A stretch of 64,000 nucleotides of DNA from the NCBI RefSeq assembly GCF_000026545.1, contig NC_011601.1. One strand, given 5' to 3'. Below the pieces are notes generated by a model that did not search any database, had not been told where the DNA came from, and saw only the letters and a list, made by a program, of their open reading frames with translations. The translations under genes and the position numbers were made by a program. The number at the start of each line of letters is the position of its first letter. The stretch's first letter is position 1. This document shows, piece by piece, positions 59,680 to 64,000 of the stretch. This stretch comes from Escherichia coli O127:H6 str. E2348/69 (lineage in GTDB: Bacteria; Pseudomonadota; Gammaproteobacteria; Enterobacterales; Enterobacteriaceae).

Positions 59680-60151
59680 TGGTACTTCCTCGCTTTAAAA
59701 AAGAGTGCACTTCGTAAGTGCCCTTATATAAATAACGAGTTTGGTCAACCAATTTTTTGACATGTATCACAAATTTGAATAGATGTATTACATCGGCTAT
59801 CTTTTATTGCCCCAACGTCATTGATATATGTCGCCTGAAATCAGTTACGGGAATGAGTCTGATCTCAAGACTGGCCCAGTCCTGGCGTTGATTGGCGCTG
59901 AGGAGCATATCGCATCTCATCGTAACGTCGTATCTCCTGGGGTGTTATACAAGATATCGTTGTAGGTAACCAGGGAGAGGAATTGAGTCTATTAAACCGT
60001 CAACTATGCCGGATACATACTGGATTACACTGCTGGCACGCCTTGCGAGAGAACGTGCCGCAGTGACGGGTTAATTATCTGAAAGAATTTGCGAGGCTGT
60101 ATCGGTTATTCATTGATTTGATAGTTTTACTCTCGGGAGAGTAATCGATAT

Positions 60152-61294
60152 TTAATCCATTAACGGAAACCAGCCAGTTCCTTTCGATGCCTGAATTTGA
60201 TCCCATAGTTTATCCGGAATGGTTAATTCAGGAATGTGTTGTGGATTAAGGGCTGTTTGAATTTCATGACTTCTACCTGATTCAGCTAAAGTCACCCATT
60301 CTGGATTTATCACCAGCCCTTTACCGATCGCAACAAGTGGCAGGCCAGCGGAAATTGCTTCTTGAGCCTGAGACGGTGTGCGTATTTTACCTGCGGCGAT
60401 TACCGGCACTCTGCCTGCAATATGATTTAAAATCAATTCAATAGTTCGGGGGCCATTTGGCGACTCAACAGGGTAGCTATCGTTAATACTGACCAGCGAG
60501 GTATGTATATACGAAATACCGGATGAAATGAGCCGATCAAGGAGTTTATAAGTATCCTCTATCCGCAGTCCCCCTGTTACAGATTCTTCAGGAGATATTC
60601 TGTAACCGATAGCAAAGGGCTTTGTCGCATATTCATAGACTACATTTTTTACTTCCTGTAATACGGCCAGCGGGAAGCGCATACGTCCTTCAAGATCTCC
60701 TCCCCATCGGTCATTACGCTGGTTAAATAGAGGGGAGAAGAAATTCTGCAGAAGGAATCCGTGCGCACCATGAAGTTCAACGCCATCAAAACCTGCTTTA
60801 ATCGCCCTTTTTGTGACATCTCCGAATGCTCTAATGGTTTCCTGAATTTCGTTTTCAGTCATTTCCCTGCTTTGTACCACTCTCTTCATAAAGTCACCAG
60901 ATTTTACGCTTGATGCGCTGGCACTAATAACATCGTTATTTGGCACAAGCTCCGGGATGGCTTTATTACCGGCGTGGAAAATCTGTAAAATAGCCGGAGC
61001 ACCGCCACTTTTTGCTGCAGCTGCTAACTTTTCAAGGCTGTTAATGAAACGGTCGTCATACGCGGCAAATTCATGAGTAAACCCAATGCCGCTTGGCGTG
61101 ACATAGGTGCATCCTGTTATTACTAAACCAACATTTTGTGAGCGACGTTTATAAAATTCGAGTTCTTGCTCAGAGATGGTTCCATCAGGATTAGCTGACC
61201 AGGTTGTCATAGGAGCCATAACGATACGATTACGTAGCTTTATTTTTTCTGTCAGCATAAAAGGAGAAAACAATGATGGGTGTTTATTTGTCAT
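60152..61294 (-). CDS. NADH:flavin oxidoreductase (Old Yellow Enzyme family)
   Basis: 380-aa ORF with OYE-like TIM-barrel motifs (APMTTWSA, HGAHGFLLQNFFSP); not recalled at this position in K-12. Confidence 0.75.
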   Translation of the reverse strand: MTNKHPSLFSPFMLTEKIKLRNRIVMAPMTTWSANPDGTISEQELEFYKRRSQNVGLVITGCTYVTPSGIGFTHEFAAYDDRFINSLEKLAAAAKSGGAPAILQIFHAGNKAIPELVPNNDVISASASSVKSGDFMKRVVQSREMTENEIQETIRAFGDVTKRAIKAGFDGVELHGAHGFLLQNFFSPLFNQRNDRWGGDLEGRMRFPLAVLQEVKNVVYEYATKPFAIGYRISPEESVTGGLRIEDTYKLLDRLISSGISYIHTSLVSINDSYPVESPNGPRTIELILNHIAGRVPVIAAGKIRTPSQAQEAISAGLPLVAIGKGLVINPEWVTLAESGRSHEIQTALNPQHIPELTIPDKLWDQIQASKGTGWFPLMD

Positions 61295-61465
61295 AACAAT
61301 ACCTCAAATGTTTATCTGATTTTAATGCGTATAATCTTAATAAGTTGAGTTGCTACTTTTTGATGCTTTTTTCTTTAATAGAATTCTTTTTGAGTAATTT
61401 CATTATTGTCGTGTAGTCAATAAAGGATAAATGTCAGGGAGATAATGAATCTCCCTGCAAGGTTA

Positions 61466-62386
61466 TTACAAATGTGTTTTGTAAAAAGGAATTAATTTAT
61501 CGAGCGCCTGTTTCACAGGTTCTGGCTTATCATACAGGTCGTAATGTGAATAACCTTCAACCACGACTAACTCTTTATGTTTTGAGGCAGCGCGGCCAAT
61601 AATTTCGCAGCCGTCACGGTAGGCACCAAATGCGCCCACTCTATCGCCCACCACAACCATTATTGGTTGAGTTAACAGGACTTCTGCAAGATGAAATGCA
61701 TCCCAACCCACGGCAACAGTCTGATGTGAGAATAGCGAACGATTTACCCCATTAGGTGCACAGCCTCGTGGCGAACGATAATATTCTGTGGCTTCAAAAA
61801 GGTCTATTTCTGTTAATTCCGCTTCAAGAGCTGCATCCGGAGAAGAGGGGAGTAAATCATCTACGCGAAGTTTTGCGCCGTTAGCTTCGTCTGTTCTTTG
61901 TTGCGCCATTGCTTCGAGTGCTCCGATAGGATTAAACGCTGTAAATCCCTCACGCATAAGACGCCCGTAGTTTGCACCCGTGACAGTACCAATAGCTTTA
62001 ATTCGACGTTCTGTCATTGCGGCATTAATGGCATATCCACCTCCACCACAAATACCCAGTACACCAATACGCCCGGCATCAACGTAAGGTAAGGTGGTAA
62101 GGTAATCAACGACAATGCTGAAGTCTTTTACTCGCATTGTTGGATCTTCCAGATAACGCGGTTCCCCACCGCTGCTTCCCTGAAAACTGGCATCAAAAGC
62201 AATGACGATAAAGCCAGCTTTTGCCAGGGCGGCACCATACACACTACCCGATGTCTGTTCTTTGCAGCTTCCAATTGGATGGGCGCTGATAATGGCAGGA
62301 TACTTTTTTTCACTATTAAAATCGTCAGGGAAATAGATATCAGCAGCTATATCCCAGTAAGTGTGTTTTATCGAAACAGTTTTCAT
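61466..62386 (-). CDS. Alpha/beta-fold hydrolase
   Basis: 306-aa ORF with nucleophile elbow-like GICGGGGY and hydrolase-like architecture. Confidence 0.7.
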   Translation of the reverse strand: MKTVSIKHTYWDIAADIYFPDDFNSEKKYPAIISAHPIGSCKEQTSGSVYGAALAKAGFIVIAFDASFQGSSGGEPRYLEDPTMRVKDFSIVVDYLTTLPYVDAGRIGVLGICGGGGYAINAAMTERRIKAIGTVTGANYGRLMREGFTAFNPIGALEAMAQQRTDEANGAKLRVDDLLPSSPDAALEAELTEIDLFEATEYYRSPRGCAPNGVNRSLFSHQTVAVGWDAFHLAEVLLTQPIMVVVGDRVGAFGAYRDGCEIIGRAASKHKELVVVEGYSHYDLYDKPEPVKQALDKLIPFYKTHL

Positions 62387-62542
62387 TTCAAGCTCCGGGG
62401 ATTTGCCTAAACAGATTTAAATATCATTTCTATTATCCGCAACTGGCATTCGTGTTCATATCGAGAACGGCGTAATAGTATGACTTGTATTGGTTATCAT
62501 CAATGGTCTAATATCTATCACAGTGTTAAGTTAAGGTTTACA

Positions 62543-63469
62543 ATGATGAAAATAGAGCCTTCAATTTTGCCTTCTCTTGCCTGGTTTGCGCTTATTGTTC
62601 GTGCCGGCAGTTTTTCCAGAGCCGCTTCTGAAATGGGTATTACGCGGGCCGCATTGTCCCAGAATTTAAAATCTCTTGAGGAACGTCTTAACACCAAGCT
62701 GATATACCGTACGACCCGCAATATGTCGCTTACTGAGGAAGGACAGCGTCTGTATGAAGTGCTGGTGTCGGCTTTGGGGCAAATTGATGATGCTTTGAAA
62801 GATGTTGGTGATACCCAACTTGAACCTACAGGCCTGTTGAGAATAAATTCCTCCCGTGTTGCAGCAAGGATGCTTATTGAGCCTCATATTGGCGAGTTTC
62901 TTACTCGTTACCCCAAAACAAAGATAGAACTCATTATGGATGACGGTTTATCTAACATTATTGCGGACGGCTGTGATGTGGGCATACGTCTTGAGCAAGG
63001 ACTGGATGAGCATATGACTGCCGTTCCTGTTTCTCCGCTTATTAAACTGGTTACTGTGGCATCGCCAGATTATTTAAAAGAACACGGTATTCCTGAAACG
63101 CCTCAGGAACTGAGTAACCATAATTGCCTTCGGTTGCGGCATAAAAGTAGCGGTGCACTCTCTGCATGGGAGTTTTCTAATGTTGCGGGCGGGAATGAAG
63201 AGTTCGAAATAGAGGTTTCAGGTAAGTATATTTCTAATGATGACGAAAGCATGATACGAATGGCGCTGAATGGAACGGGTATCATTCAACATCTGGATTT
63301 TGCAATCGCTGAACATATCAATGCGGGCAAGTTACAGCCGATTCTTGAGGATTGGGCCGTTTCATTTCCTGGGTTTTATATATATGTTTCATCACGGGTG
63401 AGAATGCCCTCTAAAGTTCGTGCTTTTATTGATTTTATGGTGGAGAAAAGAGTAAAAATAGAAAGTTAA
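62543..63469 (+). CDS. LysR-family transcriptional regulator
   Basis: Track ORF 62480..63469; probable start MMKIEPS at 62543; wHTH GSFSRAASEMGITRAALSQNLKSLE; divergent from hydrolase/OYE genes. Confidence 0.75.
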   Translation: MMKIEPSILPSLAWFALIVRAGSFSRAASEMGITRAALSQNLKSLEERLNTKLIYRTTRNMSLTEEGQRLYEVLVSALGQIDDALKDVGDTQLEPTGLLRINSSRVAARMLIEPHIGEFLTRYPKTKIELIMDDGLSNIIADGCDVGIRLEQGLDEHMTAVPVSPLIKLVTVASPDYLKEHGIPETPQELSNHNCLRLRHKSSGALSAWEFSNVAGGNEEFEIEVSGKYISNDDESMIRMALNGTGIIQHLDFAIAEHINAGKLQPILEDWAVSFPGFYIYVSSRVRMPSKVRAFIDFMVEKRVKIES

Positions 63470-63668
63470 TGATGTGTGTCAGAATATCGGTAAGAAGAAT
63501 GGCACAATCGTGAGGGTACGTTTATTCATAATAAATCTCCTGAAAGTTTAGAATTATTTTCGATACAGCCAGATTATCATTGTTACTAATAATGTGGTTA
63601 AAATAATAGCATCTATGCCCCCCTTCATGAGTGTGTGTGAAGAGGATGCTTCTACAAGGAAATCGCCA

Positions 63669-64000
63669 ATGCTCAAAGAAAACTTCAACGAACTGCAAAT
63701 CTTTCTTGTGGTGGCAAGAGAGCGAAGTTTTACCAAAGCAGCGGGCAAACTCGGCGTCTCTCAGTCTGCACTTAGCCATGCAATAAAGGCTCTGGAGGAA
63801 AGGCTCAATATCCGCCTCCTGACACGGACTACCCGCAGTGTGGCTCCCACAGAAGCGGGGGAGAGAATCATTGCCTGCCTTGAACCGCGTATTGACGAGC
63901 TTGAACAGGAACTGGAATCACTTATTCAATTGAACGGCACGCCCTCCGGGAATATTCGTTTATCTGCCGGGGAACATGCCGCGCGAAGTCTGGTCTGGCC
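63669..64000 (+). CDS. LysR-family transcriptional regulator, N-terminal part (runs off window end)
   Basis: ATG at 63669 then [46 protein letters not shown]; no stop before window end. Confidence 0.6.

Follow-up and report, generated by a model that had tools for sequence, protein, structure and literature searches.

The DNA analysed here (the window, a stretch of 64,000 nucleotides) is 100% identical to the chromosome of enteropathogenic Escherichia coli (EPEC) E2348/69 (NZ_CP059840.2). In its last part, beyond ykgR, the window carries the genes for an NADH-dependent flavin oxidoreductase belonging to the family of Old Yellow Enzymes (OYE), an alpha/beta hydrolase, and two LysR-type regulators, designated LysR1 and LysR2. 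The difference in gene content from E. coli K-12 at this locus is a deletion in the K-12 lineage, not an insertion in E2348/69, and the K-12 stub ykgP is the 3' end of the E2348/69 OYE gene.

Organization of the locus in E2348/69

All four genes have the same coordinates in the open reading frame listing of the window and in the E2348/69 record identical to it, as annotated in RefSeq (Table 1), and the positions given in an earlier description, made without database searches (hereafter the sequence-only reading), were exact for every one of them. The loci extracted for comparison are numbered L001 (E2348/69), L002 (K-12 MG1655), L004 (Escherichia sp. E1V33), L005 (Citrobacter sp. Cu233), L010, L018, and L022 (Paraburkholderia), L031 (EN-1077), L032 (K-12 ycjY), L033 (E. 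coli RMDEC465), and L037 (O157:H7 E32511).

Table 1. Features of the ykgR-distal end of the window (positions are those of the window)
Feature	Position	Strand	Basis or remark
ykgR	59578-59679	-	RefSeq annotation
Non-coding spacer between ykgR and the OYE stop codon	59680-60151		Aligns in K-12, so kept there
NADH-dependent flavin oxidoreductase (OYE), 380 aa	60152-61294	-	Pfam PF00724, E 7e-78
Last 83 nt of the OYE gene, the sole OYE part kept in K-12	60152-60234	-	blastn, L001 vs L002
In-window share of the 6,240-bp segment missing from K-12	60235-64000		blastn and junction sequences
AT-rich hydrolase/OYE spacer, 171 bp	61295-61465	-	Hairpin at 61435-61457; an NAD(P)-binding gene sits here in fuller cassettes
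Alpha/beta hydrolase, 306 aa, YcjY/PA2218 family ("hydrolase B" group)	61466-62386	-	PDB and Pfam matches
Divergent control region between hydrolase and LysR1, 156 bp	62387-62542		Sequence
Candidate LysR1 operator	62516-62530		T-N11-A dyad and 10-mer common to Paraburkholderia
LysR-type regulator 1 (LysR1), 308 aa	62543-63469	+	Pfam HTH_1 and LysR_substrate
LysR-type regulator 2 (LysR2), 5' part; 297 aa in full	63669-64000	+	Pfam; gene end at window-equivalent 64562

The LysR2 gene exceeds the window end (complete length of 894 nt in L001); it lies in tandem behind LysR1 and tail-to-tail with two aldo/keto reductase (AKR) genes outside the window, and no divergent partner gene for it was found in the E2348/69 annotation. 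Past the window, the E2348/69 chromosome continues with these two AKR genes (329 and 283 aa, both on the minus strand), which are followed by fdeC and the gene of an AraC/GyrI-type regulator, both intact, and then by a third AKR gene and rclCBA. The AraC/GyrI-type regulator is RobA-like (192 bits).

All the in-window proteins fall below every NCBIfam equivalog cut-off, and therefore none is considered the orthologue of a named enzyme or regulator. The OYE stays below the cut-offs of both NamA (176.7 bits against 431) and NemA (120.2 bits against 403), and for LysR1 the best match, YafC, reaches 194 bits where 470 would be required, which leaves LysR1 without a named orthologue. Both LysR proteins carry PF00126 (HTH_1) and PF03466 (LysR_substrate) well above cut-off.

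The spacer next to ykgR contains a weak hairpin (60127-60144) and a terminator-like site (59707-59721, minus strand), and an Rfam scan of positions 58000-64000 matched zero families. On the other side of ykgR, ykgL (L001 10871-11096, window 58550-58775) is annotated as frameshifted in E2348/69 and is intact in K-12.

Deletion of the block in the K-12 lineage

The sequence-only reading placed ykgP, eaeH, insertion sequence (IS) elements, and the rcl genes at this locus of K-12, and it held that the gene content beyond ykgR of the window was different. Both statements agree with the MG1655 annotation, in which ykgM-ykgR is followed by a 90-nt pseudogene (annotated "incomplete, missing N-terminus"), eaeH (a truncated fdeC), IS3, a truncated AraC-type helix-turn-helix gene, a truncated AKR gene, and rclCBA. 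By pairwise blastn between L001 and L002, K-12 is without a segment of 6,240 bp (L001 12556-18795, window 60235-66474), which includes most of the OYE gene, the hydrolase gene, both LysR genes, and two AKR genes, and which extends past the window end. The question of whether the four genes might after all be ordinary K-12 genes at this site was thereby answered, K-12 holding only the OYE stub.

On the left side, the alignment stops at L001 12555, leaving in K-12 the final 83 nt of the OYE frame, and on the right side the breakpoint falls 14 nt upstream of the second AKR gene's start codon. The junction consists of eight unalignable bases with microhomology of 1-2 nt at most. A published K-12 construct, "ykgP::terB::eaeH", likewise confirms that ykgP adjoins eaeH (PMC6061781).

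The K-12 state is the derived one, because an insertion that never happened could leave no gene stub. The direction of change is also seen in Escherichia sp. E1V33 (unclassified, taxid 2478976), in which the order ykgR-OYE-hydrolase-LysR1-LysR2-AKR-AKR-fdeC is collinear with that of E2348/69, at 92-95% nucleotide identity and 95-98% protein identity over the block. For all six genes, comparison of these two strains gave ratios of nonsynonymous to synonymous substitutions (dN/dS) of 0.04-0.12 at dS of 0.17-0.26 (Nei-Gojobori), indicating that the genes have long descended together vertically, under purifying selection. In E1V33, the left flank is different: past ykgR the contig stops aligning with E2348/69 (L004 11862-13306), and ykgM and ykgO were not detected there.

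The K-12 and E2348/69 loci correspond in position and are bounded alike, at one end by ykgM-ykgR and at the opposite end by the fdeC/eaeH promoter region, but K-12 differs not only by the 6,240 bp. The 3' parts of fdeC and of the AraC-type gene (ykgA) have been lost in association with IS3, and the third AKR gene is partly deleted, whereas all three genes are intact in E2348/69. K-12 is left with eaeH, ykgA fragments, and a 129-nt reductase stub from an interval (L001 19347-25696, past the window) that is intact in E2348/69; the entire ykgR-rcl interval is degraded in K-12.

Distribution of the block among E. coli

Among 5,426 complete E. coli genomes, the 4.3-kb stretch is present at a level of at least 80% in 2,102 and the 7.9-kb six-gene block, at the same level, in 1,785. 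For an allele survey, 60 rows were drawn evenly down the ranking of the 5,426 genomes. The block was intact in 20 of the 60, interrupted by IS1 in the OYE gene in one (APEC37), damaged by IS elements in four (all of O157:H7 type), and affected by other partial deletions in two (GPEC1035 and E04). The K-12-type allele was found in 32 ("21% coverage" genomes, including O104:H4, O111:H8, and UMNK88), and it spans 1,667-1,669 bp in all of these, which points to one shared deletion event.

In O157:H7 E32511, the OYE, hydrolase, and LysR1 genes are intact, LysR2 and the first AKR gene are missing, and fdeC is split by IS3. This allele spectrum, together with the state of E32511, indicates that the locus is a hot spot of reductive evolution and that OYE, hydrolase, and LysR1 act as a module. 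In the same strain (L037 1799-4449 and 8591-11680), ISEc8 lies between ykgM and ykgR, ykgR is annotated as frameshifted, and a 118-aa open reading frame without Pfam match stands in place of LysR2 and the first AKR gene.

A protein homologue search with the OYE returned thousands of intact 380-aa copies, the full-length form being dominant; these were only near-identical E. coli copies, uninformative on other taxa, for which the search was replaced by a scan of one genome per species and a search of 50%-identity clusters. Two further records, a 4.4-kb contig of a "Collinsella sp." metagenome-assembled genome (L003) and a 462-bp contig of "Terrisporobacter petrolearius" (L030), carry E. coli locus sequence (98% and 92%, respectively) and can almost certainly be put down to E. 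coli contamination of the two assemblies.

Active-site residues of the OYE

The Oxidored_FMN domain (PF00724) was matched over residues 7-343 of the OYE, corresponding to positions 1-341 of the 342-position profile, and 138 OYE chains of PDB matched at E < 1e-10, the best being 3L5A (7e-47). The protein has T30 and the substrate-anchoring pair H175/H178, which align with H172/H175 of TsOYE, and the residues Q104 and R232 for contact with flavin mononucleotide (FMN) are conserved. In the column of the proton-donor Tyr (Y196 of OYE1, Y169 of YqjM, Y177 of TsOYE), however, the E2348/69 protein has F180 (codon 60755-60757, minus strand), the motif being HGAHGF as against HMAHGY in TsOYE. The same Phe occurs in three cassette orthologues (from Citrobacter, Paraburkholderia, and RMDEC465) and in the cluster representatives P0121, P0122, P0124, and P0126; it is fixed across the subclade of at least 47% identity, and the neighbouring clades carry HGAN(T/G)Y. 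No characterised member of the HGAHGF subclade was found.

The nearest 50%-identity representatives include proteins of about 370 aa with HGAN(T/G)Y and fusions of 900-1,000 aa. These representatives match the description of cluster 6 of the sequence similarity network (SSN) of OYEs, or class III, which contains YqiG, LacER, and LrFOR and for which large fusions have been described (bioRxiv 10.1101/2023.07.10.548207), and the E2348/69 OYE may on this resemblance be called class-III-like. Class III enzymes are likewise PF00724 TIM-barrel flavoproteins, but they have His-x-x-Asn and Tyr where the E2348/69 subclade has His-x-x-His and Phe. Among relatives with a solved structure the best is 3L5A, which comes from structural genomics, is unpublished, and has none of these three residues.

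The Cys-type alpha/beta hydrolase

The hydrolase matches the structure of YcjY (5XB6) over residues 12-304 at 41% identity (E 2e-67) and that of PA2218 (2HDW) at E 8e-44, and its fold is regarded as fixed because a 41%-identical crystal structure exists. Among Pfam families, Peptidase_S15, DLH (dienelactone hydrolase), and Abhydrolase were matched, the first two above cut-off, the DLH match being weak and partial (25 bits). The protein belongs to a paralogue group, here called hydrolase B, with 62-87% identity inside the group and 41-44% identity to YcjY.

The predicted nucleophile is Cys113, located in a G-x-C-x-G elbow (GICGG) and aligning with the Ser of GLSMG in 8B4U and in the MHETase 9PJB and of GMSFG in 7D78. 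The Cys is likewise present in YcjY and PA2218. A His within GYSHYDLYD, near the C-terminus, is conserved too: YcjY and PA2218 have it, and the alignment pairs it with the His of 8B4U and 9PJB. The acid position of the candidate triad is D, S, or E across three homologues. Dienelactone hydrolases are marked by a nucleophile of the Cys type. The literature search found no functional studies of YcjY, PA2218, or the entries 5XB6 and 2HDW. Identity of the hydrolase with "TspE4.C2", the esterase marker of phylogroup PCR, was considered and rejected, the primer having no match in the window.

The divergent control region

The sequence-only reading described a regulator facing its targets, and this layout was found as described: the hydrolase and OYE genes stand opposite LysR1 across the 156-bp region, and the arrangement is syntenic in three Paraburkholderia species. 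A candidate operator was derived from this cross-genus comparison. The intergenic regions of E2348/69 and Paraburkholderia share the 10-mer CTTAACRCTG at equal distance from the LysR start codon; in E2348/69 it reads CTTAACACTG (62521-62530, minus strand), a single occurrence in the 64-kb window, and there is one match at the equivalent intergenic site in each of L010, L018, L022, and the E1V33 locus. The 10-mer overlaps an imperfect dyad, TATCACAGTGTTA (62516-62528), that fits the T-N11-A pattern of LysR boxes. Judged from these sequence features, the segment 62516-62530 is likely to be a recognition site of LysR1. Extra matches to CTTAACRCTG in coding DNA of L001, L005, and L033 are about the number given by chance and were left uninterpreted. 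Upstream of the two LysR genes, no inverted repeats of at least 8 nt were found.

Located 9 nt past the hydrolase stop codon (61435-61457) is an inverted repeat with perfect 9-bp arms (CAGGGAGAT, 5 nt, ATCTCCCTG), which could be an attenuator or an mRNA-stabilising element. The length of the spacer that holds it in E2348/69 varies, being 171 bp there, 136 bp in E1V33, and 234 bp in O157:H7.

Relation to a wider enzyme cassette

A search for orthologues and conserved neighbourhoods, as proposed in the sequence-only reading, showed that the neighbours are conserved in every proteobacterial OYE match. In the scan of one genome per species, relatives of the OYE were found in Escherichia (95%), one Citrobacter (83%), and, at about 55%, Paraburkholderia, Bacillales, and Sphingobacteriia. 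In three Paraburkholderia species, an orthologue of LysR1 (50-51% aa identity) is divergent from four enzyme genes, which encode hydrolase A (72% to E. coli YcjY), hydrolase B (63% to that of E2348/69), a 212-aa NAD_binding_10/NmrA-like protein, and an OYE (56% to that of E2348/69). The same four enzymes stand behind a PgrR-like regulator in Citrobacter sp. Cu233 (hydrolase B 87%, OYE 83%); gene order and orientation agree between the Paraburkholderia and Citrobacter loci, whose orthologues are 51-87% identical at the aa level. A more distant OYE of 50% identity shares its contig with two DLH/S15 hydrolases and several short-chain dehydrogenases/reductases (SDRs). In Cu233, an N-terminal fragment of a P4-type integrase (L005 5876-6217), after yfdC, lies immediately ahead of the cassette, which suggests that the Cu233 cassette arrived within a mobile island.

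The E. coli LysR-hydrolase-OYE unit is a trimmed copy of this cassette, the full form of which is LysR, hydrolase A (YcjY), hydrolase B, NAD_binding_10 protein, and OYE. In a tblastn search of the E. coli unit, neither the NAD(P)-binding gene nor hydrolase A gave any relic at E < 0.01.

A related set of genes lies at the pgrR (ycjZ) locus. In EN-1077, this locus contains ycjY, a second hydrolase (62% to that of E2348/69), an NAD_binding_10 gene, and then mpaA. Comparison of K-12 (L032 5958-6291) with EN-1077 (L031 5957-7705) gave two deletions (L031 6012-6900 and 7046-7705), which cost K-12 the second YcjY-type hydrolase together with the NAD_binding_10 gene's 3' part; because of these deletions, the ymjD and ymjC stubs of K-12 are regarded as relics of the same cassette type. 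The pgrR-ycjY-ymjD-ymjC-mpaA locus resembles the E2348/69 unit in having a LysR-type regulator divergent from a YcjY-family Cys-hydrolase, and in Citrobacter and RMDEC465 an OYE is added to this type of locus. The E2348/69 unit differs from it in the regulator (LysR1 is only 31% identical to PgrR), in having hydrolase B only, in its chromosomal site, and in the lack of an SDR and of an mpaA neighbour.

The second LysR of the window, LysR2, is 47% identical to PgrR. In RMDEC465 (L033 2014-10621), a full cassette of PgrR-like regulator, hydrolase A, hydrolase B, two SDRs, and OYE stands directly beside a LysR2-AKR-AKR trio with 91-95% aa identity to that of E2348/69, indicating that the two modules became neighbours more than once.

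Discussion

We consider it probable that the genes beyond ykgR represent an old and dispensable block that was lost once in the K-12 lineage, and that the LysR1 unit, with its hydrolase and OYE, serves to deal with an unsaturated ester, lactone, or electrophile; this is the best overall explanation of the results. The stretch would have belonged to the Escherichia chromosome from early on; E2348/69 has kept it, and one illegitimate deletion of 6.2 kb in the K-12 lineage produced the 83-nt "ykgP" stub. LysR1 may bind the 156-bp divergent region, with the candidate operator near 62516-62530, sense a small molecule, and thereupon switch on the hydrolase and OYE. Hydrolase B, a Cys-nucleophile enzyme of dienelactone-hydrolase-like character, would open an ester or lactone, and the class-III-like OYE would reduce an activated C=C bond or an electrophile, or perform another hydride transfer by FMN. 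The outcome might be a step of detoxification or salvage of an unsaturated lactone, ester, or electrophile. LysR2 and the two AKRs outside the window would constitute a separate, adjoining carbonyl-reductase module.

Two known systems offer partial parallels. The chlorocatechol pathways have ClcR (LysR-type regulator), ClcD (dienelactone hydrolase), and ClcE (maleylacetate reductase), and the shared logic is a LysR regulator, a Cys-hydrolase opening an unsaturated lactone, and a C=C reductase; the E2348/69 unit differs in having an FMN-dependent OYE, not an iron-type alcohol dehydrogenase (Fe-ADH), and in having no dioxygenase or cycloisomerase genes. The likeness is thus one of functional analogy, and membership in these pathways is not claimed. 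The electrophile response of E. coli by NemR-NemA-GloA likewise places an OYE-family electrophile reductase under a one-component regulator, but NemR is of TetR type whereas LysR1 is of LysR type, NemA is a class I OYE with Tyr, and the NemR system is not known to have a hydrolase partner.

A role in detoxification or salvage is supported by the neighbourhood of the OYE relatives, which adjoin MerR plus Fe-ADH, AraC, or RpiR regulators, as genes for stress and detoxification commonly do, and by the packing of the E2348/69 locus with AKRs and rcl genes. Bacteria are known to process coumarins both by reducing them and by hydrolysing the lactone, and coumarin is reduced by the OYE XenA (PMC7913881), a precedent that pairs an OYE with a hydrolase and so lends further support to this role.

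Several observations weigh against this explanation. The LysR1 start codon is only about 15 nt away from the candidate operator; such a position speaks more for autoregulation than for activation of the hydrolase promoter, although it may serve both. A scan of positions 59400-64000 for sigma-70 promoters and terminators stayed at the level of chance (10 promoter-like sites with 10.1 expected, and three terminator-like sites with 4.3 expected), and the hydrolase and OYE genes are separated by the 171-bp spacer with its hairpin; co-transcription of the two is plausible, not assured. The protonating Tyr of the OYE is replaced by Phe180, so that net ene-reduction, although likely, is not certain. 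The E. coli unit is without the hydrolase A and the NAD(P)-binding protein of the full cassette and may represent only part of the original pathway, and the OYEs of Bacillales and Sphingobacteriia are unlinked to a hydrolase. Finally, a literature search with the four RefSeq accessions of the proteins found no paper naming them.

A more far-reaching view is put forward tentatively: the E. coli unit, the ykgP stub, and the ymjD and ymjC stubs may all be remains of one horizontally mobile five-gene cassette (LysR, two Cys-nucleophile YcjY-type hydrolases, NAD_binding_10 protein, and Phe-type class-III-like OYE) that would convert an unsaturated lactone or ester by a route so far undescribed, possibly with isomerisation by the OYE and not reduction.

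That the OYE is not an ene-reductase at all, but an isomerase (by putting hydride on and off) or a reductase of quinones, nitro compounds, or oxygen, is rather unlikely, although it deserves attention for the Phe at the position of TsOYE Y177, which is fixed in its subclade and replaced by Tyr in neighbouring clades. A natural Tyr-to-Phe change is known to convert the fungal OYE EasA from reductase to isomerase (PMC4303823). On the other hand, the anchoring His pair and the FMN-contact residues are conserved in the E2348/69 protein, and the SDR, AKR, and Fe-ADH neighbours suggest net reduction. Moreover, some OYEs, PETNR Y186F among them, reportedly keep their ene-reductase activity with water as proton source.

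We consider it improbable that the genes are decaying relics without present function in E2348/69, in a locus that erodes at a lineage-specific speed. Erosion itself is evident: the K-12-type deletion is present in about half of the genomes, APEC37, GPEC1035, and E04 carry IS1 or partial deletions, O157:H7 has suffered ISEc8 and IS3 damage with loss of LysR2 and the first AKR gene, K-12 thrives without the block, and what E. coli carries is already a trimmed form of the cassette. However, the low dN/dS at dS of about 0.2 reveals sustained purifying selection on all six genes, full-length 380-aa copies prevail among thousands of sequences, and O157:H7 dropped the second module and yet kept OYE, hydrolase, and LysR1 intact.

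Even less credit is given to the possibility that the unit serves the recycling of peptidoglycan peptides, with the hydrolase as a peptidase or amidase. In favour of it, YcjY and the hydrolase share 41% identity, Peptidase_S15 is the best Pfam match of the hydrolase, and PgrR has been described as a peptidoglycan-recycling regulator whose regulon includes ycjY-ymjDC-mpaA (PMC5934670). However, the ycjY-type cassettes of Citrobacter, Paraburkholderia, and RMDEC465 contain SDR and OYE redox enzymes without mpaA, for which reason mpaA seems to adjoin the cassette without being part of it. In addition, no peptidoglycan gene lies near the ykgR-side unit, the identity of LysR1 to PgrR is low, and an OYE has no obvious part in peptide recycling.

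An island inserted horizontally beside ykgR in the E2348/69 (B2) lineage, with K-12 as the ancestral empty site, is hardly credible: the OYE-hydrolase-LysR1 part is indeed AT-rich (38-48% GC, as against 50-52% for LysR2 and the AKR genes), the OYE is patchy over Escherichia, one Citrobacter, Paraburkholderia, and Bacillales, and the Citrobacter cassette adjoins an integrase fragment, but the 83 nt kept in K-12 are in frame with the intact gene, which is impossible for an empty site, the block is syntenic in the divergent E1V33, no integrase, tRNA, or flanking direct repeats were found around the block in the E2348/69 annotation, and the ykgM-ykgR flank is equally AT-rich, so that composition marks no island. 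An ancient acquisition predating the diversification of Escherichia would be a separate claim, compatible with these findings.

The phenomenon is one of ordinary strain-to-strain variation in a well-conserved accessory segment of familiar protein families; the difference in gene content is already implicit in existing annotations, and it has no bearing on any long-standing open question. The present analysis adds a map of the deletion with its polarity and the spectrum of alleles; it also connects the unit with the YcjY cassette, proposes an operator, and draws attention to the unusual Phe of the OYE. It explains the K-12 pseudogene ykgP and identifies K-12 as the degenerate state of the locus, with the consequence that maps based on K-12 overlook one LysR regulon, while working genes are kept by about one-third of E. 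coli, among them EPEC, many isolates from humans, and in part O157:H7. The OYE subclade without the canonical Tyr proton donor may be of interest to enzymologists. Should the mobile-cassette view be true, it would be necessary to reconsider the "peptidoglycan recycling" label given to PgrR-YcjY, YcjY belonging with the cassette and not with mpaA. The repeated occurrence together of Phe-type OYEs and Cys-nucleophile YcjY-type hydrolases offers a route to the function of the orphan YcjY and PA2218 structures.

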